Part shown: in pieces, positions 1 to 53,175 of the stretch | How the letters are laid out: each line of letters starts with the position of its first letter | Numbering within the stretch: position 1 is the stretch's first letter | Virus record (IMG/VR): IMGVR_UViG_3300032087_001346 | Location: 1-53,175 of that record | DNA from: a virus | Lineage: Duplodnaviria > Caudoviricetes | DNA length: 53,175 nucleotides | Strand: one strand, 5' to 3' | Translations under genes and position numbers: made by a program | The notes under the pieces: generated by a model | The model's database searches: none | What the model saw: only the letters and a program-made list of their open reading frames with translations | Told to the model about the DNA's origin: nothing

Positions 1-104
1 CATAGTCTTATCCTCTCAAAAGTACCTAAAGGGGCATGTTAAGTAGAGAATAATTCCGAGTAGCACAAATGGAATTGCGCTAATTAGAGATATATCCATA
101 TTTA
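1..104. repeat. Direct repeat copy 1 (circular overlap)
   Basis: Identical to 50961-51064 except one mismatch (tcctCtcaaa vs tcctTtcaaa). Confidence 0.95.
16..99 (-). CDS. 27-aa hydrophobic early peptide, copy 1 (not in ORF track)
   Basis: MDISLISAIPFVLLGIILYLTCPFRYF; AAGGA RBS upstream. Confidence 0.6.
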   Translation of the reverse strand: MDISLISAIPFVLLGIILYLTCPFRYF

Positions 105-130
105 TTCCTTTTTGAATGTTAAGCAAGCAC

Positions 131-197
131 AATTTACACATATAAAAAGTGCCACTACCAGCTATGCCAGCAGCGACACTTTTCCTATTTGTAAACC
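131..197 (-). promoter_or_regulatory. Long G-U-rich intergenic hairpin (RNase III-type processing site or terminator)
   Basis: On -: GUUUACA..AAAAGUGUCGCUGCUGG..CUGGUAGUGGCACUUUU..UGUAAAU pairs over more than 20 bp. Confidence 0.5.
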
Positions 198-215
198 GGG
201 ATTGGTGCGGAGGGA

Positions 216-698
216 CTAAGCGGCAATCAGCTTGCTAAATTCCGCCATGCGAGCCACAAAGGCTTGCTTATCGCCCTTAATTTCCCAGCCTTCCTCTTGC
301 GCCTTTTCGATCCGCTTGTTCGCAAGTTCGAGTAATTTTTCCGCGACAAGTAGCTTGTCAAGGTCTATCGTGGGCATTGTTTCTTCGGAAAATTCCCAGA
401 ACGGCACTTCCTCCGCCTTGCCTATGTTTTCTTCCTGCCACGCCTTGCCTTTTTTCTTCGCAAACGCTTGTTTTTCTTCATCCCATTTAAGCGGGGAATG
501 TGAGACAATGTGAAGGATAAGCGCCTTGCGCCGCATTCCTTTAGACACTGCGTTCGCAAGATTAGTCAACGGCGTGTGATTGCCATGCTCCGCCGCGTGG
601 CGCATCGCGGCAATCTCCACTGCATGGATTTTATCCTGCAAGGTTTTGCTGGTACGTTTAATCTCACCGATTTTTCGGTTGATCGTTTTAATGTCCAT
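216..698 (-). CDS. Conserved early phage protein (first early gene)
   Basis: Likely start MDIKT at 698 with AAGGG RBS; HAxEHG...KGxRRxAL...PFW pattern resembles podovirus early proteins. Confidence 0.7.
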   Translation of the reverse strand: MDIKTINRKIGEIKRTSKTLQDKIHAVEIAAMRHAAEHGNHTPLTNLANAVSKGMRRKALILHIVSHSPLKWDEEKQAFAKKKGKAWQEENIGKAEEVPFWEFSEETMPTIDLDKLLVAEKLLELANKRIEKAQEEGWEIKGDKQAFVARMAEFSKLIAA

Positions 699-734
699 TA
701 TTCTATTCCCTTTCGCTTGGTTTATTTGGTGCAA

Positions 735-1253
735 CACATTGCTGCAATAAACCCTACCCATTATTAAACAGGGTTTATTGCAACACCGCGCGCCGTGTCA
801 TTGGCGCATTGCGGCATTGCCGTTCAAATTAGAATAGCTTACCTACCATTGTCGCGGCGCATAAGCCCCGTCGTCTAAGACAATAGAAGAATAAGCTAGA
901 CTTGATTTAAACGAAGATTTTTTCGGGAATTTCAGCCCTAGCATCTTACTGCTAATCGCATTCAATTTCCGCCCAATGCTAGGCGGGAAAATCTTTTCTA
1001 GTCGATTTTCTAACTAACCGGCGAACCGACCCGCCATGTGCGGTAGGATATCGTTTTCCTTGGCGCTTGCTAACACGCCCTTGTAAGGTTTTGCCCTTCC
1101 TTTCCCGCGCCGGTACATGGGCAGTCTTATGCCTAACCCATGGGCGATCACGCGGCGATCATGACCCGAACCTTGCCTTTTTATCCTTACCATGCATGAG
1201 GCATTGGCAAGCGTGAGGATTTATCCTATCTGTTAGCCTTTCATCATTTCGAT
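735..1253 (-). ncRNA. Candidate long structured ncRNA or 5' leader
   Basis: No ORF of 60 aa or more; more GC-rich than the upstream flank; many nested inverted repeats; starts right after a sigma70 promoter. Confidence 0.5.
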
Positions 1254-1259
1254 GGTGAG

Positions 1260-1288
1260 AGACTATCAAAGGCTGATTAGGCTGTCAA
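1260..1288 (-). promoter_or_regulatory. Sigma70-type early promoter
   Basis: TTGACA-17 nt-TAGTCT on - strand. Confidence 0.75.
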
Positions 1289-1470
1289 AACTTTTTAGGC
1301 TAATTTTATTTTTTTGTTTATGCTCTTTTTGTAATAATATTTCAAAAATATCTAATCTTTTGGATTGTCTTATATATATACAAAAGATATTTTTTATTCT
1401 GCTAGGCTATGCAAAACCCGTGCTAACCTTTGGCGGAATTGTGGGAATTTTTCACGCAAAAGGATATTAA

Positions 1471-1556
1471 ATATAAAGATGCTCTTATATAAGGATATCT
1501 TTATATTCATACCGATATACATATAAAGATTTCTTTATATAAGGATTTCTTTATAT
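1471..1556. repeat. Palindromic repeats of about 16 bp, ATATAA(A/G)GAT...CTTT
   Basis: Four near-identical self-complementary units at 1471-1506 and 1521-1556. Confidence 0.85.
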
Positions 1557-1659
1557 TTAAAAGAGGAAGGAGGGGTGGGGGTATACTCTCTTTGAGCATA
1601 AGGGGGTTTTTGGATGTTCACTTTTTGTTCTAGAAACTGCATTTGCAGTTAAGACAATC

Positions 1660-1750
1660 CAGAACAAACAAGGAACAAACCAAGAACAAAACAGGAGAAT
1701 TTTAAATCGGAAGAACAAAGAGTGAATTTTCGCAGAACAAAACAAGAACA
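1660..1750. repeat. Short GAACAAA repeats
   Basis: About six GAACA(AA) copies in 90 bp. Confidence 0.6.
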
Positions 1751-1811
1751 CCCTACCCAAAAAAAATGACCTGTTTGTATTATATATATATGCCACTGAG
1801 ACATATAGACC

Positions 1812-1883
1812 AAAAATACAAGGCTTGCTAACAATAAAAAATACAGGGTTTGCTAACAGCTAAAAATACAAGGCTTGCTAACA
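1812..1883. repeat. Three iteron-like direct repeats, 25-bp period
   Basis: AAAAATACA(A/G)GG(C/T)TTGCTAACA x3, followed by a very AT-rich tract at about 2000-2120. Confidence 0.9.
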
Positions 1884-2194
1884 ATTAGAATTTTGAAATA
1901 AAAAAAGAGGCATTTCCAATATTAGGAAACACCCCCTTAGTTTATTTTAGCTATTTGCAGTTCTGAAAATTACAACTAAAATTGCGGCTTGTTAAACAAT
2001 ATTATATATATCTATATAGACTTATGTAACAATATTAAAGACTTTATAATTATTATTTTCTTTATTTTATAATAACATTAAAATTATTATTTTAATTATC
2101 TTTTACAATATTTATTTTAATGTTAATGAATGATGTAATGAATGATGTAACGAATGGTGCTAAGACTCTGTTCCGTATTGTCTCTATAGAATAT

Positions 2195-2223
2195 ATTATA
2201 ACAGATAACAATAACCATTTCAA
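2195..2223 (-). promoter_or_regulatory. Sigma70-type promoter pointing into the non-coding repeat region
   Basis: TTGAAA-17 nt-TATAAT on - strand. Confidence 0.55.
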
Positions 2224-2449
2224 GCAACAAAACAACAAATAAAGCAAAAAAATAAAAATAAATTTTTAGTGTTGCATTTATGCAACTGTGCTACTATCAG
2301 AAATATGAAAAAAGACAACTAAGGAATAGCACAGGGTTGTCTTCCTTTAAAGAGGGTGTTAGTATGATGAGGAATAATGTAAATGAATGGTGTAAACGAA
2401 TGGTGTAAACGAATGGTGCAAATAAATAAAATAGTGAGGAGCAAAAAAC

Positions 2450-2623
2450 ATGGCTTGTAAAAACCCTAACTGTAAAAACAAAGAGTATTGTAACTGTAAA
2501 AGCTGTAATGAAAAGTCAGGCAGAAAGACATCCAATGGTATAGTTCAAAATGTAAAAAATGCCTGCTGTAACTGTAATTGTTGTCTTCCTGTTACGCCTC
2601 GCGATACAGTTAAAAAAAGATAA
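2450..2623 (+). CDS. 57-aa cysteine-rich metallothionein-like protein (not in ORF track)
   Basis: MACKNPNCKNKEYCNCKSC...ACCNCNCCLP; 10 Cys; GAGGAG RBS at 2436-2441. Confidence 0.7.
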   Translation: MACKNPNCKNKEYCNCKSCNEKSGRKTSNGIVQNVKNACCNCNCCLPVTPRDTVKKR

Positions 2624-2653
2624 ATAAATGGTGCAAACGAATGGTGCAAACGA

Positions 2654-4261
2654 ATGGTGAATGAAGAAGAAGTAGATAACAATCAAAAGCTGACTGCAAG
2701 ACAAGAAGAGGCATTACAAGAGCAGGAGTTTCGTTATGCTACTTTGCTACAAGTAAGAAACGGTCTAAGAGATTTAGTATCTCTAAAGTGTGAAAAGGAT
2801 TTTCTTACGTTTGTTAGAATGATTGCGCCTACGCTTATTTCTGACTGGCAGATGGGTAAGCACATTGAAGTATTGTCTGATAAGTTACAAAAGGTAGTAG
2901 ATGGAAAAATCAAAAGGTTAATGGTCTTTTTACCTCCACGTAGTAGCAAGTCAGTAATTTGTTCCAAGTTATTTCCTGCATGGTATATAGGTAAAAACCC
3001 TAACCATGAAATACTGACAGTCAGCCACTCGGATCAACTTTCCAGTGACTTTGGTAGATCGGTAAGAGACATAGTAAATACTGAAGAGTTTTCTGATATG
3101 TTTCCCGGTGTAAGTCTAAGACAAGATGCACGAGCGGCAGGTAAGTGGAAGACAAACCTCAATGGTAGTTACTATGCTGCGGGTGTACGATCACAGATTG
3201 CTGGGCGTGGCGCACACGTAGCTATTCTTGATGATGCTATGTCAGAAGAAGATAGTTTTTCTGATGCAGGAAGGAGATACATCAAGGAGTGGTGGCCTTC
3301 AGGCCTTAGAACACGTATTATGCCTAACGGCGCAATTATCATTATTAACACTCGTTATCACTACGATGATTTATGCGGGTGGTTACTTAAGCAACAGGAA
3401 AAGTTTGACGTAGACACAAAGATGCGCTGGGAAGTAATTAGTATTCCCGCGTGGGTAGATGAAAAATCTAGTAGGCTTTTAGGTCTTCCAGAAGGAACAA
3501 GTTACTTTCCTGAATGGAAAAGTGATGAAGTTCTAAGACAGGACGAGATGGAGATACGAGCTACTAACGGGTCTAAGTACTGGGAAAGCCTGTATATGCA
3601 AAACCCTACGCCTGACGAGGGTAGTCTGATTAAAAAGGATTGGATTAATTGGTGGGAGTATAGCGATCCTCCCAGTTGTGATTTTATTCTTCAAACATAT
3701 GATACAGCATTCTCTACCAAGACAACCGCAGACTACTCTGTTATTCAGACATGGGGTGTATTTTATTTTTATGATGACAATCCAGAAACAGGAGAAGAGA
3801 ATGTAGCTTCTAATCTTATTTTGTTAGGAAGTAAGCGAGGAAGATATGAATATCCTGATCTTAGGCGTATAGCACAAGAAGAATACAGAAAGCATAAACC
3901 AGATTTTTGTCTCGTGGAAAAGAAGGCTAGTGGTCAGTCTTTGATACAGGATATGAGACGTAGTGGTTTACCAGTATTGGAATATACTCCTGACAGAGAT
4001 AAAGTAAGCAGAGTTATCTCTGCATCTCCTATGCTTGAGTCAGGAAGAGTATTTTTACCCGATGGAAAAGGTTGGTCAACAGAACTGTATGAAGAGATGA
4101 TAATGTTTCCTTACGGTAGACATGATGACCAAGTAGATGCTATGACTATGGCTATTCACTACGTCAAAGATAGTTGGAGATTAGAACATCCAGATGACCC
4201 TGATTGGGAAGATGATGTAAACCCGCGAAGGCAGAAGCGAGTTGCATACTGGCGAGTTTAA
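2654..4261 (+). CDS. terL: Terminase large subunit
   Basis: PPRSSKS Walker A, AILDD Walker B, DTAF and HDDQVDA nuclease motifs. Confidence 0.97.
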   Translation: MVNEEEVDNNQKLTARQEEALQEQEFRYATLLQVRNGLRDLVSLKCEKDFLTFVRMIAPTLISDWQMGKHIEVLSDKLQKVVDGKIKRLMVFLPPRSSKSVICSKLFPAWYIGKNPNHEILTVSHSDQLSSDFGRSVRDIVNTEEFSDMFPGVSLRQDARAAGKWKTNLNGSYYAAGVRSQIAGRGAHVAILDDAMSEEDSFSDAGRRYIKEWWPSGLRTRIMPNGAIIIINTRYHYDDLCGWLLKQQEKFDVDTKMRWEVISIPAWVDEKSSRLLGLPEGTSYFPEWKSDEVLRQDEMEIRATNGSKYWESLYMQNPTPDEGSLIKKDWINWWEYSDPPSCDFILQTYDTAFSTKTTADYSVIQTWGVFYFYDDNPETGEENVASNLILLGSKRGRYEYPDLRRIAQEEYRKHKPDFCLVEKKASGQSLIQDMRRSGLPVLEYTPDRDKVSRVISASPMLESGRVFLPDGKGWSTELYEEMIMFPYGRHDDQVDAMTMAIHYVKDSWRLEHPDDPDWEDDVNPRRQKRVAYWRV

Positions 4262-30832: not shown

Positions 30833-31342
30833 CTATTTTAGCACATGTCCTTCCCTGCTTTTTCTATACTCAGCGGCAGGATCGTGTTTTGGCTGGACCT
30901 TCTCTCTGGTAAGAGCCTCTTCATCTTCTTCATCAAAGAAATCACACTTCAAAAACAACTTTGATGTTTCATCCTCACCAAGAACTTCAAGATATTTTAC
31001 TATCTCCTGTTCAAGTTCTGCTATTGACTTAGGTGTTTCATCCTCTTTAGCTGAACGAATGCGAGACAAAACTTCCAGTGCCTTGATGGCGCTGTTGGTA
31101 TGTCCATTATTTTTGGCATAGGTGTACTGATTTTCTATTTCAGATACAACATCAATACGAGTCTCAACTTCTTTCTCTAGCTCTTCGATGCGCTGCTTTA
31201 TGTCTTCGCGCTGAAGTAGTCTGTGTCCCTGTGTGTGAGCAGACCCTTCTGAGTATCCAGCAATCTTTGCTGACTCTGTAGCGTTACGGTAAAGAACGTA
31301 TGCCTGACAGAACTTTTCTTGTCTGACCTTTAGCTCTTTCAT
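30833..31342 (-). CDS. terS: Terminase small subunit
   Basis: L..RQEKFCQAY....NAT.SA..AGYS..SA..QG.RLL...I..RI.EL, the Terminase_2-type HTH signature. Confidence 0.85.
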   Translation of the reverse strand: MKELKVRQEKFCQAYVLYRNATESAKIAGYSEGSAHTQGHRLLQREDIKQRIEELEKEVETRIDVVSEIENQYTYAKNNGHTNSAIKALEVLSRIRSAKEDETPKSIAELEQEIVKYLEVLGEDETSKLFLKCDFFDEEDEEALTREKVQPKHDPAAEYRKSREGHVLK

Positions 31343-33639
31343 GCTGCATCTTTCTCCAGAATAAAGTCTGTATAGTGAGGAGGATTATATTGCTTTGACA
31401 GTTTATAAACTTGAGACATGAGGGTATTATCGCCATAAAAGTTTATCTTCATTTCGATCTGGGGTTGATCGAATAGTTTCTCACAGTCTTGTGCCATAGC
31501 GAGAAGCTCACCCGTAGTCCAGAAGTGATGCTCGTTAATTTCGACTGGCATATACTTAGGACGTACACCGTCATCTAATTTCTGTTTCTTCTGCTCGTCT
31601 GTAAGACCGTCGATAGAACAGTCAAATCCAAACAAATGGAAATTCCTAAAGCCAAACACATGCATCATACCGATTGAACGCATTGCAGAGCATGTTCCGC
31701 CAGTGACAAATGTGGTAGACTCTTTGTCGATATTAATCTCTTGAGCAGCTTCTACCTTACCGCTGACAATATCAGCTACTGCTTGTGAATATGCATGCCA
31801 ACCGTATACGTTTTTTGTCTTCTCTAAGATAAACCGAGTTACTGTTGGGTCAGTCATAGAAGCGATAAAGAATTTGGTATGAGGGTCAATCTCTTTGAAT
31901 AACTCCTGACGCACAATTCCATGTGTGCTTGTTCCTGTTATTGGACGAGGATCAAGGATAACACATGCCCACGGTTGAATGCCAGCTTCTAACAGCATAG
32001 GATAACTGTGCTTAACGCAGACAATCTTTGCGTCATATTTCTTCTGCACCTGTTTAAGTTCATCAAAGTCAATAGAAGGACCGGCTGATGCAATAATAAT
32101 ATGTTCTTCATTCATTGCACAGTTTTGAACAAAATCCCAGCTATCTATCAGGTCTATATTCTCGTTAATGTTATCGAATATTTCCTGTTTAGGCACACAG
32201 TCCTTTGGTTGGATTATGATAGGTGTACGGCTAAGAGACTTAGGCAATCCATCAAGGTCTTCTGTCTTCAATCGAACAGCAAGATGAACAGTTCCACCGC
32301 CCTTAACTTTATCCTGTGAAGGAAGAACAAAGCACCTCATGTCTTCCTTTCCAATAGATTCAATAAGACGATTAGTTCCTAGAAACTCATCTTCAGGAAC
32401 TTTTCCATCTTTATCTTTGGCATAATAATCGTCAAACGTAACTACAGGAACATGGCTGAGATGCTTATAGTCAGAAAGAATAGTCTCTTCGCTATGACCA
32501 CCATCAATAAAGGCAAAGTCAATCTTCTTTAGTTCTTTTTTTGCAAGAGGCATAGTCTCTTTTGAATCACCCCTATGAAGAGAGAAGGTAAATTTCTTTT
32601 TCTGCTCCTTCATCTTAGCAGCAAAGTCATTTAGACGTTTTGTTACAGCATCAAAAGAATTATGCGCCTTTGCATTGTGTTCTTTTTTATCTGTCTCATC
32701 AGTTGCATCTTCAAACAAATCAAAGCCTACGTAGTGTACTTTGTTTACATTTTCAAACGCCGCAAGAGCCATCTCTACAGCCCGACCACCATTCCATGTT
32801 CCTACCTCTACGATATTCTTCGGTTTGTAATTACGAATAAGTTCTGCAAGCTGGCTATATCGAGGCAGTTTAATATCTGGTGAAACTGCACCATCATTAA
32901 TTTTGTTTTTTCGATTACCCTTATAGTGAATCATAAATTTACCGAGATTAGATTGAGGGAAGACATCTAAACCATCAGCACCTTCACTAAGATTATGAAC
33001 CTTCATGCCATGAGCGGCATAAATTTTAATGAATCGAGTAATAATAAAAGCGTCTGTCCACTCACGGTAAGCAGTAACTTCACCAATGTCATAACAACCA
33101 CGAATGTCTGCAAGGAAGTAGTGGCTATGCATGTTGTCTAAATTAAAACCTACAAAGCCTGTCTCACTAAAGTCAATATCCTTACGACCAAGATGTACCA
33201 AGTCTGCATCTTTTGGAAAAGCATCAAATAAAATTTCTTCAGATACTGGCGCTGTCGTTATAACATCAGCGTCTACCCAGATAAGCCAACCACCCTGCGC
33301 TTCTTTCTCTGACACTTCAAGAAAGTAGTCAGTAAGAGCATAAACCTTATGGCAAAATCTAGTAGCATCTAAGCGAAAATTATATTCTATTCTTCCACCT
33401 TCAGTTCCATCATGTTTAGCCATAATCTCTAAGAATTTTGATCTGTCTTCTACCTCATCCAGATCACGATATTCAATAATAGGAGATTGAGGAAAGTCTT
33501 TCTTCTGTTCTTCAGTTACAGTATCATAGTAGACAATCAATTTAAGATCATCAGCCCAATGCCGCACAACAGACTCAAGCATTTTTTTAGCGTAGACATC
33601 ATAGTGTTTGCCACAGAAGGACGTTACAAATCTAACCAT
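31339..33639 (-). CDS. Three-domain fusion: GT-A glycosyltransferase + class I SAM methyltransferase + Maf/DUF115-like domain
   Basis: RFCHKVYA..WVDAD..ETGF; VEVGTWNG..GFDLF..FIDGGHS..FDDY; IIASAGPSI..GIQP..LDPR..GGTC..GFRNFHLFGFDCS. Confidence 0.8.
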   Translation of the reverse strand: MVRFVTSFCGKHYDVYAKKMLESVVRHWADDLKLIVYYDTVTEEQKKDFPQSPIIEYRDLDEVEDRSKFLEIMAKHDGTEGGRIEYNFRLDATRFCHKVYALTDYFLEVSEKEAQGGWLIWVDADVITTAPVSEEILFDAFPKDADLVHLGRKDIDFSETGFVGFNLDNMHSHYFLADIRGCYDIGEVTAYREWTDAFIITRFIKIYAAHGMKVHNLSEGADGLDVFPQSNLGKFMIHYKGNRKNKINDGAVSPDIKLPRYSQLAELIRNYKPKNIVEVGTWNGGRAVEMALAAFENVNKVHYVGFDLFEDATDETDKKEHNAKAHNSFDAVTKRLNDFAAKMKEQKKKFTFSLHRGDSKETMPLAKKELKKIDFAFIDGGHSEETILSDYKHLSHVPVVTFDDYYAKDKDGKVPEDEFLGTNRLIESIGKEDMRCFVLPSQDKVKGGGTVHLAVRLKTEDLDGLPKSLSRTPIIIQPKDCVPKQEIFDNINENIDLIDSWDFVQNCAMNEEHIIIASAGPSIDFDELKQVQKKYDAKIVCVKHSYPMLLEAGIQPWACVILDPRPITGTSTHGIVRQELFKEIDPHTKFFIASMTDPTVTRFILEKTKNVYGWHAYSQAVADIVSGKVEAAQEINIDKESTTFVTGGTCSAMRSIGMMHVFGFRNFHLFGFDCSIDGLTDEQKKQKLDDGVRPKYMPVEINEHHFWTTGELLAMAQDCEKLFDQPQIEMKINFYGDNTLMSQVYKLSKQYNPPHYTDFILEKDAA

Positions 33640-39080: not shown

Positions 39081-39305
39081 CTAAACAGCCATTAGTTCTG
39101 GCTTATCAGACATAAGTTTATAACGTGTGTAATTCGCACCGTCTGGACGTTTTGCGGTTACAGCGTCGATAAGATAACCAGACTTACGAAGGTCTGAGAT
39201 TGTTGCTGTGAGATTTTCACACCACCCATTCTCAATGGCAGTCTTACGAGTGACACGCATACCCTTCTTCAGTGCGCGTAGAACTTTAATCTGATTGTTA
39301 ATCAT
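39081..39305 (-). CDS. Winged-HTH DNA-binding protein
   Basis: VL..L..G..VT...A...L.A.ISDLR..GY.I. Confidence 0.75.
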
Positions 39306-40321
39306 GTTAGTTTTCCTTCACTTTGATATAGAAACATCTCATCAATCAACTGATGAAATGACACTTTTGTTTGCCAACCCAACTTCTGTTTGGCTTTGGT
39401 TGAATCTCCAAGAAGAAGATCAACCTCTGTTGGTCGATAGAATTTAGGACTACAATCGACAAGAACTTTGTTGCCATCTTTGCCCACGGTGTTTACTCCT
39501 TCGCCTGACCAAGACAAAGAAATACCAAGAAACTTTTCAAAGGAATAGTCAATCAACTCTTTGATGGAGTGTGTCTCTCCAGTAGCAAGAACATAATCTT
39601 CTGGATTGTCTTGCTGTAACATCAGCCACATTCCCTCTACATAATCCTTTGCACTTCCCCAATCACGCTTGCTGTATACATTACCAACAGTCAACTTGTC
39701 AAGTCTTTTTTCTTTAATATCATTCACAGCCTTGACAATCTTTTGTGTTACAAAATTATCCCCTCTCATCGGAGATTCGTGATTAAACAGAATACCGTTA
39801 CAGGCGTACATGTTGTAAGCCTCTCGATAATTCTTAACCATCCAATAGCTGTACAACTTAGCCACGCCATAGGGCGAGCGAGGATAGAAGGGAGTAGTCT
39901 CGGTCTGCGGAGTTTCTACTACCTTCCCATACAACTCTGAAGTAGATGCTTGATAGAACTTACAACTGTCAATCATTCCAAGTGATCTAATTGCCTCAAG
40001 CAATCGAGTAGTACCAAGACCGTCAACATCACCAGTGTATTCAGGAATATCAAAACTAATACGAACATCAGACTGTGCAGCAAGATTATAAATCTCCTGT
40101 GGCTCAACTTCACTTATGATTCTGAGAAGGCCAGAAGTGTCTGTCAAATCTCCATACAGAACTTCAAAATGCTCGCCCTTGTTCAGCTTGTTGATACGTG
40201 TGAAGTTATCTACTGAAGACCTACGAACAACAGAATATACATCATAACCCTTGTCCATCAGGAGTTGAGACAAATAATATCCATCCTGTCCAGAACCGCC
40301 AGTTATTAACGCTCGTTTCAT
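39302..40321 (-). CDS. gmd: GDP-mannose 4,6-dehydratase
   Basis: [46 protein letters not shown]. Confidence 0.96.
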
Positions 40322-50275: not shown

Positions 50276-50963
50276 AGTCGATTACAAATCCAGTTACATC
50301 CTTTTTCGCTTTGCCTTTGGCATACAGCGCCACGACCACGTTATCAGGATCAAGAAAGCGTAGGTCGTCCGCATCGCCGTTGATAACTTTACGGCCTAGA
50401 AAAGTATCTGGAATATTGTTCTTGTCTCGAAACACTACGGCTAGGTTTGCGCCGTAAGTGTTTGCATATTCTACTACTTTGTCTCGATATGTATCGTTCG
50501 CCTCGGAATAAGAAAGTGTGAGGTGATAATTGCTAGGCCAATGCTTCGCGACTCGATTGTAGACCTTGGTGTAGTCATAGAATTGAATGCGTGGGTAATC
50601 CTCTATGATCTTGCGCCAGTGGTAGTCGCTTGTTCCGTTTAGTCTCACGACAGGCTGTATGCCTTTGCGTTCGCAATACTTTTGAAACTTGTCCAAATCC
50701 TTGCGGAGTAGCGCATCAAACTCCTCTGGTAGTCGCAGCAATAGTTTTGCTTTTCTATGCCGCGCGGCTTGTACTGTATTGAGTGCGCCTCGCCCCGCCG
50801 TGTTAAGACAACCCGCCTTACATCCCGCTTGCCTTGCCATAGGACATAGAAAATCGTCGGGTAGTAGATACATGATTGCCGTGAGATATTCTGACCCATC
50901 ACCCTTGATTGTCTTTGCGTTATTTCCTACGCCTAGCAGTTTCAATCCGTTTACTTTAGCCAT
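50274..50963 (-). CDS. GP88-like protein (radical-SAM-like Cys triad)
   Basis: N.KT.K, CP.A...GC...CL..AGRG, VRLNGTSD, QFYDYTK, NYHLT.S, GD..DLRFLD. Confidence 0.8.
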   Translation of the reverse strand: MAKVNGLKLLGVGNNAKTIKGDGSEYLTAIMYLLPDDFLCPMARQAGCKAGCLNTAGRGALNTVQAARHRKAKLLLRLPEEFDALLRKDLDKFQKYCERKGIQPVVRLNGTSDYHWRKIIEDYPRIQFYDYTKVYNRVAKHWPSNYHLTLSYSEANDTYRDKVVEYANTYGANLAVVFRDKNNIPDTFLGRKVINGDADDLRFLDPDNVVVALYAKGKAKKDVTGFVID

Positions 50964-51064
50964 AGTCTTATCCTTTCAAAAGTACCTAAAGGGGCATGTT
51001 AAGTAGAGAATAATTCCGAGTAGCACAAATGGAATTGCGCTAATTAGAGATATATCCATATTTA
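50961..51064. repeat. Direct repeat copy 2 (circular overlap); includes the 27-aa peptide ORF at 50976-51059
   Basis: Matches 1-104. Confidence 0.95.
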
Positions 51065-51325: not shown

Positions 51326-51697
51326 TAATTTACACTCAAGATTTTCTGCAAAACAAAGGATTTATAAATATATAATTTTTAATCAAATCAGTGCTCCAGT
51401 TATTGAAAAAAAAAGAGGATGGCATGTTAGAAAACCTTTGGATTTAGATTTAATTAAAAAGGGAGCAAAAAAATTAGTTGGAACTCATGATTACTCTACT
51501 TTTAGATCTTCAAGCTGCCATGCTAAAAGTCCAATTAAGACAATTAAATCAGTGAAAGTTAAATCATTGAAAAGTAAAATAGAAATTGAATTTAACTCAC
51601 AATCTTTTTTACAGCAACAGGTTAGATCTATGGTTGGTTGCTTAAAATACTTAGGTGAAAAAAAATGGGATTTACAAAAATTTAATAAGGTGCTCTC
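51326..51697 (+). pseudogene. truA: Internal fragment of tRNA pseudouridine synthase A (bacterial, very AT-rich)
   Basis: HSRFSA..R.Y.Y, GTHDYSTFR, SFLQQQVRSMVG; both ends missing. Confidence 0.85.
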
Positions 51698-52085
51698 TAA
51701 TTCTTCTTTCTCAGAAACTAGTACTTTTATTAAATTATTCTCTGCAGTAGATTCATCAAATTCAGCAATTTTAATAGTATTTTTATAAATAGATTTTTTC
51801 TTTTTGTAATGAACTTTTATCTCATAATTACCTGAAAGTAATTCAATTTTAAAAACTGTATTTCTTGTATTTTGTGAAATTAACAGAGTCATATCTTTAA
51901 AATTCTGAGAAATTAAATATACCATTCTCCATTTCCAAAACTGAAACTTCTTTGTAACTGTATAAAGTTTATTTTCTTTAGCATCTTTAATTTCTGCACA
52001 AGTTTTTCCAAACTCCATATACCAAAAAGAACTAAAAATAAGTTCTTTAGCATTTTCTTTAGTTAAATAAAGTTCATTGTTATTC
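51690..52085 (-). pseudogene. Fragment of an unrelated AT-rich bacterial gene
   Basis: Open frame ELYLTKEN..KKFQFWKWRMVY..KIAEFDE with abrupt composition and homology changes at both ends. Confidence 0.5.
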
Positions 52086-52801
52086 TGTTCTATTTCGTAC
52101 CACCAGTTGTAGTCGTAATAACCTTTATCAAATACATAGGTGGCACCCTCTTCTATTTCTGTTTCTCGCCCAACTTCCACGTCATTAATATTGGGCGCTG
52201 TCATCTTCATTTGCACCGGCAATTCCTGTTTAGGTGCGTAGATCATGTGGACTTTTAGCCCTTGCGTTCGATAATTATGATTATCCTTTGTCCATTCATC
52301 ATACCCTAGGCCCTTAAGGGGAATGGGGCTTGAGTCAATCAAGTACAGCAAGTCTTTTAACTCACTTCTAACCTGCCTGTGAGCTTCGCCTATTAGCCTC
52401 CCGCAAACATGTTCGAACAACTCACAGCTTCGATTTCTATTGGCATCAGCCAATGTAGAGCGCTTAATTTCGCGAGTGCCCAGATGGTAATGCTGCTCTT
52501 TATGACCGTTAAAGCTTGCTTTCAATTCTCGCAAACTTTCGCACCCCGAAACCTGTGCATATATCATCGCAATCAGTTGATCCCAACTGGTAAACCCTTT
52601 GTTGTGTTTGTCATTACCTTGCTGATCAACTATTTTTTCAAAACTTCCTCGAGGAAGGCCTTTCATTAGATCTCTAAATCGTGTATTTCTATACATCTTG
52701 CAGCACCTAAGTTTCGAGTCGTGTCTTAACTTTGTACCTTTATAGGTCAGGTGCTGCAACCCTTCTTAATCAATCCCCCAATTTTATTCCGGACAGTAGT
52801 G
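52085..52801 (-). mobile_element. Truncated IS4-family element (DUF4372 + DDE transposase N-terminal half)
   Basis: FTSWDQL.AM.YAQ..ESLREL, RSTLADAN, IDSS, LKVH, YVFDKGY; start about 52696; left end CACTACTGTCCGG at 52801. Confidence 0.85.
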
Positions 52802-52820
52802 CGCCTACGCGGGAATGACG
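52802..52820 (+). repeat. REP-like half element abutting the IS end
   Basis: CGCCTACGCGGGAATGACG resembles the widespread ..CCCGC..GCGGGAATGAC proteobacterial repeats. Confidence 0.5.
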
Positions 52821-53175
52821 ACGGTGGGATATTATAGTGTAAGGGGTAAACCTCTATACATGAATTTGTCAGCTATCGGGAACATATTTAGCCAATTTCA
52901 GATGTAGTGTCTGAGTCTCAAATTAGCACACATTCGTCATTACCACGTAAAGCGGCAAAATACAGAATTCATTGTTTTAAAAAGGCTTAGTGCCTGTCCA
53001 CTTCGAACTAAAAATCAAGCACATAGCCAGTACAAGTTGACTATGAACTACGGTTTTACACCTCAAGCATAACTAATCAGGCTTTCATCACCATTTTCCA
53101 GTAAATGATTCACTTGGTTAAAAGTCAGCAAGTCGGTTTTATGAGGTTTTACTAATAGTTCACTAAAGCTTGTGT

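Follow-up and report, generated by a model that had tools for sequence, protein, structure and literature searches.

A conserved large structured RNA, with a fold selected on the strand of the gene that follows it, is encoded at the left end of the window, by which is meant the whole 53,175 nt of a linear IMG/VR viral contig with a completeness estimate of 91%. This leader RNA of approximately 545 nt (699-1243, minus strand) has a 5' end inferred from sequence and a 3' end set by the start codon of a 160-aa gene at 216-698 on the same strand. Comparison with relatives indicates that it belongs to a new family, the phrog_1448 leader RNAs, which would comprise RNAs of 550-850 nt in marine phages with a 3' module and a loop-loop contact in common. 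A sequence-only reading of the window had proposed a highly structured, leftward-transcribed non-coding RNA with several domains, and this was borne out by folding energy, by the lack of any Rfam match and by covariation both within the window's own lineage and among relatives.

The leader RNA of the window

Approximately 590 nt without a credible ORF lie upstream of gene 216-698. The longest ORFs in 699-1290 were of 59 aa (1014-1193, minus strand), 49 aa and 40 aa, in agreement with the earlier statement that no sizeable ORF precedes the start at 698, and the 59-aa ORF matched nothing in Pfam or PHROGs. The gene itself lies in an ORF of 181 aa (216-761), the start of which was reset from 761 to the ATG at 698 because of the aligned starts of 11 homologues. 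GC content was 0.44-0.54 over 701-1300 compared with 0.26-0.29 at 1201-1500, so that the leader is indeed richer in GC than its upstream flank. When folded, the minus strand gave a minimum free energy (MFE) of -193.9 kcal/mol compared with -163.8 +/- 6.3 kcal/mol for 100 dinucleotide shuffles (z -4.77), a comparison that the sequence-only reading had suggested. The plus strand likewise folded better than its shuffles (z -3.69), and the strand is therefore not fixed by folding energy alone.

Searching the whole window against Rfam 15 (4227 models) produced no family at gathering score, and the riboswitch, ribozyme, intron, RNase P and tmRNA classes among those models were unmatched. A permissive search of 1-3000 with E up to 10 gave 20 sub-threshold matches, all microRNA or snoRNA noise and neither GOLLD nor ROOL among them; the best in 699-1290 were mir-653 (19.6 bits, gathering score 77), Plastid-psbA-2, snoR134 and sok, far below gathering. 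Nothing relevant, and again no GOLLD or ROOL, was found in eight related loci searched with E up to 1. ARAGORN detected 0 tRNA genes and no tmRNA over the 53,175 nt, and together with the Rfam 15 search this upholds the view that the RNA is not a tRNA, tmRNA, RNase P RNA or intron.

A promoter-like site (1250-1278, minus strand), consisting of TTGACA (1278-1273), a 17-nt spacer and TAGTCT (1255-1250), is located at the boundary between AT-rich and GC-rich sequence. It had been described as a near-consensus sigma70 promoter, and this holds for the -35 hexamer (6/6) and the spacer but is overstated for the -10 hexamer, which agrees with TATAAT at only 3/6 positions. The site was missing from a scan for consensus promoters because that scan needs 4/6 at the -10 position. 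Transcription would start near 1243. At the corresponding boundary of the related locus L016 a similar TTGACT-17-TACGGT was read by eye. One RNA-library run (X20) yielded a single 152-nt contig (1154-1304) that spans the proposed promoter; it does not give a start, an end or a strand, and may be DNA.

The predicted leader fold contains approximately 30 helices (MFE helix table), all described here as minus-strand RNA. A 5' kissing hairpin at 1117-1141 has a stem of 1141-1133 paired with 1124-1117 and a loop, CAUAAG, at 1131-1126 (mean pair probability 0.90). A central multi-branched domain of about ten hairpins, closed by UUCGGG/CCCGAA (1170-1165/927-922), is predicted at 922-1170. It is followed by a long irregular hairpin domain (821-913; probabilities 0.94-0.98) with a closing helix of 9 bp (913-905/829-821), within which a stem of 18 pairs (898-879/853-835) carries an apical hairpin with the loop CUUAUG at 865-860. 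The 3' module begins with hairpin Ha (780-820; 820-811/789-780 and 807-803/794-790, with probabilities of 0.88 and 1.00) and has as its core the long hairpin Hb (746-779), which has 15 pairs in the MFE structure, was aligned to the covariance model R1 described below and corresponds to an inverted repeat, I11, with arms (740-755/770-785) that are 94% complementary. Within 707-745 there follow a small hairpin GCAGCA/UGUUGC (745-740/736-731), a tail ACCAAAUAAACC and, near the 3' end of the leader, a Shine-Dalgarno sequence AGGGA (711-707).

The helices listed in the sequence-only reading were recovered in part. TAGCTTA/TAAGCTA, ATTGTC/GACAAT, CATGGG/CCCATG and the 13-bp stem, which is hairpin Hb, were all present in the MFE structure, whilst ATCCT/AGGAT was seen only in the form of 4-bp AGGA/UCCU hairpins. 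Four others, AAGATTTT/AAAATCTT, CCTAGCAT/ATGCTAGG, AAGGTT/AACCTT and TTCTAA/TTAGAA, were absent from it, having been superseded by competing local hairpins or by better-supported helices. The last of these clashes with helix 913-905/829-821, which is backed by three compensatory pairs.

Covariation in natural variants and relatives

At least part of the stretch was present in 20 public sequencing runs from 9 studies, with at least half of the sampled words held by 12 of the 20, and the samples containing the leader came from seawater, biofilm, sediment and other marine sources. Variants were obtained from contigs of three DNA runs placed at 80% likeness, including a form approximately 10% divergent over 721-926. 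Among 112 differences the 40 listed comprise 33 in the leader, at 754-986, and seven in the gene. All seven of these gene differences fall at the third codon position; the 33 leader substitutions are distributed 13/11/9 by position modulo 3. Twelve of the 33 listed sites make up six pairs that had changed on both sides and were nevertheless kept (754/771, 756/769, 822/912, 824/910, 828/906 and 838/895), although in run X15 position 838 was changed and 895 was not. Seven further listed sites (766, 768, 779, 780, 837, 847 and 909) had changed on one side only and remain paired on minus-strand RNA only, as at 780 in Ha, where a G-U pair is retained on that strand. Pairs were broken at five of the 33 (841, 844, 870, 905 and 986; five of 24 sites paired in the MFE structure) and the remaining nine were unpaired. 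These variants cover the 3' ~200 nt of the leader, the central domain (922-1170) being a prediction from folding.

A search of 5.8 billion proteins with the 160-aa sequence identified 12 proteins, including the window's own, at 56-100% identity, and from their alignment one viral locus (L003) and 16 metagenome loci were obtained. A near-identical contig, L002, holds only the end of the gene and what lies downstream, its upstream part being absent. A GC-richer, ORF-poor leader of 600-850 nt directly preceded the gene wherever 500 nt or more of upstream sequence was available (14 of 14 loci). Where 1000 nt or more was available (11 loci), GC content beyond the leader dropped to 34% or below in 10 loci and only to 37-38% in the other, L018. 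In the window and in all 17 loci that hold the gene start, a phrog_1448-type gene is located directly downstream on the same strand with no intervening terminator.

Comparison by blastn divided these leaders into types A (L003-L012 and L014), B (L013, L017 and L019) and C (L015 and L018), with L016 and the window each standing apart. The window leader showed no blastn similarity to any other type, and nhmmer profiles of type A and of B/C/L016 did not bridge the types, matching the tail alone at E ~1. No match was obtained when the leader was compared by blastn with 50,697 phage records or when viral contigs were searched for an exact 40-nt match, and a scan of genome contigs for the 160-aa protein produced no relative. 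A degenerate 16-nt motif found at 118 viral-contig loci was rejected as chance, none of these loci having the protein or any leader-like sequence. MFE abstract shapes were too variable between sequences and were dropped as a means of comparing architectures. Synteny anchored on a protein can thus recover RNA families that have diverged past the reach of BLAST and nhmmer.

Gathering homologous leaders and checking them for covariation, as had been advised, gave clear compensatory change. In a type A set of eight sequences (five of full length, 80-99% identical), the consensus structure of 187 pairs was paired in 98.6% of 1288 cells. Changes on both sides were observed in 32 of these pairs, compared with 1-4 when partners were slid by 1-3 columns, and the observed number was reached by 0 of 500 shuffles. 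G-U cells numbered 166 and A-C cells eight, with 98.6% of cells paired on the gene's strand and 86.3% on the opposite strand; because G-U cells so far exceed A-C cells, the type A structure belongs to the gene's strand. Variable columns were spread 75/66/64 by position modulo 3, with no three-base periodicity. In an imperfect block alignment of types B, C and L016, 49 of 117 pairs had compensatory changes. Four of the five full-length type A leaders (L003 at 2332-2800, L005, L009 and L010) can be read on the antisense strand for 151-165 codons without a stop. This frame is interrupted in L007 and lacks any third-position excess, a 127-aa part of it in L003 that begins with ATG/GTG had no Pfam match, and the stretch is read as a probable by-product of composition.

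The 3' module was observed in every type as 94-105 nt comprising Ha, long Hb (15-23 pairs across the family), a short spacer and a UUGCAUAACC-like tail, of which the window tail ACCAAAUAAACC is the counterpart. The tail lies approximately 20 nt ahead of the ribosome-binding site, and the module is followed by an A-rich stretch and then the Shine-Dalgarno sequence. A joint MAFFT alignment of the modules of type A with those of B/C/L016 misplaced the Hb 5' arm and for this reason was not used to build a model. A covariance model, R1, was instead derived from six B, C and L016 sequences, excluding the window and type A, and was run on both strands of 74,854 nt. With E of 3e-4 to 0.012 it picked out seven of the eight type A loci, in each case where the module was expected, and missed L008; its one match in the 53-kb window was to minus-strand positions 720-814 (18.4 bits, E 0.03-0.04). 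As these E-values are rough, the weight of the result lies in this being the sole match in the window, at the right place and on the right strand.

A second feature in common is a six-base loop-loop pairing between the 5' hairpin loop and a hairpin loop located 167-194 nt before the start codon. The paired loops are CAUAGG/CCUAUG in type B, L016 and L007, CAUGGG/CCUAUG (with one G-U) in the other type A leaders, CUUAGG/CCUAAG in type C and CAUAAG (1131-1126)/CUUAUG (865-860) in the window. In an end-anchored alignment of 11 sequences all 66 cells were paired, and two of the six pairs showed double-sided changes, of which the window carries one; the slid controls were paired in 25-55% of cells and one of 500 shuffles reached the observed score. 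When the window's upstream part was shuffled 5000 times, the partner hexamer arose by chance in 561 shuffles (~11%), and the evidence for the contact is therefore its joint change rather than its presence. This conserved long-range contact indicates a compact tertiary fold and not a string of hairpins.

Genome setting and distant homologues

The plus strand of the window from approximately 2450 to 30,700 encodes the terminase large subunit (2654-4261), the portal and structural proteins, whilst the minus strand from approximately 50,960 to 30,830 encodes a T7-type primase-helicase, a family A DNA polymerase, ribonucleotide reductase, ThyX and sugar-modifying enzymes. The last region includes a 766-aa methyltransferase/MptE-like fusion (31339-33639) and a GDP-mannose 4,6-dehydratase (39302-40321), the sequences of which suggest modification of sugars or of a surface. 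In L002, gene 216-698 is followed by the equivalent of window positions 51,335 to 48,415, that is, by a GP88-family gene and the remaining minus-strand genes. The same order of leader, gene, small genes and GP88 is found in L003, and the gene order of these two contigs places the leader at the head of the whole leftward operon. The earlier description of the region as the first early transcript is consistent with this position and with the early placement of homologous genes, but no transcript start was seen. Early timing in the window phage is suggested by position and by analogy with distant relatives.

Beyond the leader an AT-rich, repeat-rich stretch extends up to the terminase gene. This region between the two (1290-2650) is a divergent control region dense in repeats, with 13-nt units AACGAATGGTG(C/T)AAA in three clusters (2125-2163, 2382-2422 and 2614-2672), three 25-nt direct repeats at 1812-1890, GAACAAA-type repeats at 1650-1770 that are present again in relatives, and a 45-nt inverted repeat at 1467-1560; its role may be in packaging, as an origin or in the binding of regulators. 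Directly before the terminase large-subunit gene there is a small cysteine-rich ORF with many CxC/CxxC motifs (2450-2623 in the window, 57 aa; 962-1195 in L003, 77 aa), and no small terminase subunit was recognised.

Positions 1-104 of the window are a 99% copy of 50961-51064, and L002 connects the downstream flank of gene 216-698 to 51335, including approximately 232 nt missing from the window's left end. The genome is probably circularly permuted or terminally redundant, with the contig ending inside the repeat. The right end (51336-53175), a stretch absent from L002, carries a 422-aa transposase-like ORF (DUF4372 and DDE_Tnp_1) overlapped by a pseudouridine-synthase fragment. Residues 1-227 of this ORF match Oleiphilus (90%), 221-359 Polaribacter (63%) and 356-422 Pelagibacter (88%), and because its parts match three organisms separately this end of the contig looks chimeric. 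A guess at the host from the same ORF was dropped, since its three parts point to these three different organisms.

The 160-aa protein (216-698, minus strand) was assigned to phrog_1448 (E 3e-26). It is basic over residues 1-95 (pI 10.1) and acidic over 96-160 (pI 4.6), its AlphaFold model has a pLDDT of 72, no PDB fold match (best E 0.67) or Pfam family was found for it, and its Atlas neighbours are viral clusters without names. Distant homologues (105 records, 28-33% identity) occupy the left end of Autographiviridae genomes, where they are gp01 or another early gene. Four host promoters annotated by the depositor precede the homologous gene of Ralstonia phage phiAp1, and the leader of that phage gave z -2.5 in sense compared with +0.7 in antisense (20 shuffles each). 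In Xanthomonas phages, covarying hairpins occur right before the homologous gene. R1 found nothing in eight Ralstonia, Aeromonas and Xanthomonas phage loci, and the exact kissing pair was not found in cultured Autographiviridae relatives.

The last 160 nt before the gene in the Xanthomonas Pradovirus loci (L140-L145) contain a GCAA-loop hairpin, a long hairpin and a small hairpin CGUGC-N-GCACG, followed by the ribosome-binding site. The arms of the long hairpin vary between phages with their complementarity kept, whilst the small hairpin is conserved, and the layout resembles that of the marine 3' module, although it is not matched by R1. In the early non-coding region of Xanthomonas phage XAJ24 (L144 327-500; record positions 863-1036) a 174-nt 'tRNA-Trp' has been annotated, which is far too long for a plain tRNA. 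The phiAp1 locus (L138, ~1300-1335) contains a hairpin GAUUGUG-AUGCAUAGGCG-CACAAUC at a distance from the gene similar to that in type B, where the 5' kissing hairpin GGAUUGA-UGCAUAGGC-UUCAAUC is closely alike; the exact partner hexamer is absent downstream of the phiAp1 hairpin.

Possible roles and comparison with known RNAs

Of the linkages found for the leader, the closest is that with the adjacent gene and the ribosome-binding site of this gene, a connection absent from the proposals of the sequence-only reading, and the best-conserved part of the leader adjoins that site. The reading to which we would give about an even chance is that the fold influences, in cis, how the adjacent gene or operon is expressed. 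Host polymerase would transcribe the leader from the promoter-like site (1278-1250) as the first product of the leftward operon, and the 3' module would set translation or stability of the adjacent gene or operon. The CC(U) stretch of the tail could pair weakly with the Shine-Dalgarno sequence (3-bp pairings; helix 28 in type A), and by eye the tail could alternate between the strand that closes the module and the Hb 3' arm, giving two conformations. We infer this cis-regulatory step from those 3-bp pairings to the ribosome-binding site and from the alternatives read by eye. At approximately 20 bp, Hb is a plausible double-strand RNase site, cleavage of which would detach the folded body from its message. 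The 160-aa protein, because of its basic N-terminal half and acidic tail, would be the first candidate partner of the RNA. Known translational operators manage with less than this size and tertiary contact, a point in favour of a role for the RNA body itself.

This last point also bears on a somewhat less probable explanation, held here as tentative, that the leader is a stand-alone, trans-acting large RNA of the GOLLD/ROOL sort, a decoy or sponge that is cut at Hb and acts, possibly as an oligomer, on a host or phage factor, its leader position merely supplying early transcription. Approximately 30 helices and a conserved loop-loop contact are beyond the needs of an operator, the length of Hb fits a double-strand RNase substrate, and a conserved 3' region with a variable 5' region is reported for GOLLD too (PMC12286853). 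Set against these are the absence of a terminator or gap between RNA and gene in 18 of 18 loci, the position of the best-conserved part against the ribosome-binding site, and the lack both of a match to the GOLLD and ROOL models and of nearby tRNA genes, the latter being the usual neighbourhood of these RNAs (PMC12286853). A bolder proposal, speculative and a shade less probable again, is that the family constitutes a new class of large compact phage RNA of GOLLD/ROOL rank, the earliest product of infection, which would be detached from its mRNA at the twin-hairpin module and act as an RNA particle or as an RNP with the 160-aa protein in host take-over or counter-defence. If this were true, the module would be an ancient early cassette shared with T7-like phages.

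Placement directly behind a promoter-like site and at the head of a long operon would suit a put-like, cis-acting processive antiterminator ensuring read-through of the ~20-kb leftward operon. We consider this analogy unlikely, since conservation is at the 3' end and not the promoter-proximal end, the leader exceeds known elements of this type in size many times over and Rfam gave no put-like match. Least probable is that the region is no RNA element at all but functions as DNA (an origin, a packaging or an entry region), is the remnant of a decayed gene or contains genuine small ORFs. The proximity of the repeat-rich AT region and terminase gene, the plus-strand z of -3.69 and the antisense stop-free stretches in four of the five full type A leaders could be cited in its favour. 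It is made less likely by the large excess of G-U over A-C cells on the gene's strand, by the seven one-sided changes, among those listed for the window lineage, that pair as minus-strand RNA only, by substitutions without three-base periodicity and by the failings of the antisense frame itself, broken in L007 and with neither third-position excess nor, in its 127-aa part, a Pfam match.

The family falls within a known kind, that of large phage RNAs and structured early leaders, and in the literature searched no large phage leader RNA of this description was encountered. To our knowledge few natural RNAs longer than 500 nt have a conserved fold backed by covariation, the phage examples being GOLLD and ROOL, which have no assigned function; the present RNA, tied as it is to a single protein gene and to the start of an operon, offers a direct handle on its function. 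Like GOLLD and ROOL it is phage-encoded, 550-850 nt in length and rich in covarying helices, and the division into conserved 3' and variable 5' regions recalls that reported for GOLLD. The leader differs in matching no Rfam model, in coming from a window without tRNA genes and in running into a protein gene with no gap or terminator. A screen of IMG/VR intergenic regions for covariation (Fremin et al. 2023; PMC10690425) is alike in data source, in its use of covariation and in the constant place of candidates upstream of one gene family. Those candidates were of 29-151 nt and the pipeline required three IMG/VR regions, the number of IMG/VR contigs found here for the leader family being three, one of them without a leader; a fragment of the leader RNA may nonetheless be among the candidates.

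The leader also resembles put RNA in being a structured RNA that lies near the promoter and opens a long phage operon, but its conserved part is promoter-distal and it is much larger. Processive antiterminator RNAs such as put of HK022 measure approximately 70-120 nt. The lambda N leader and the T7 early leader with site R0.3 are early-operon leaders with double-strand RNase hairpins. The present leader is 2-5 times longer than these, multi-branched and equipped with a conserved tertiary contact, and nut-type boxes as in lambda N were not seen in it. Like both it would be a non-coding stretch between an early host-type promoter, here a motif match with a weak -10, and the first early gene, and it ends in a long hairpin near the ribosome-binding site. 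Distant homologues of the downstream gene are first or early genes in T7-like phages.
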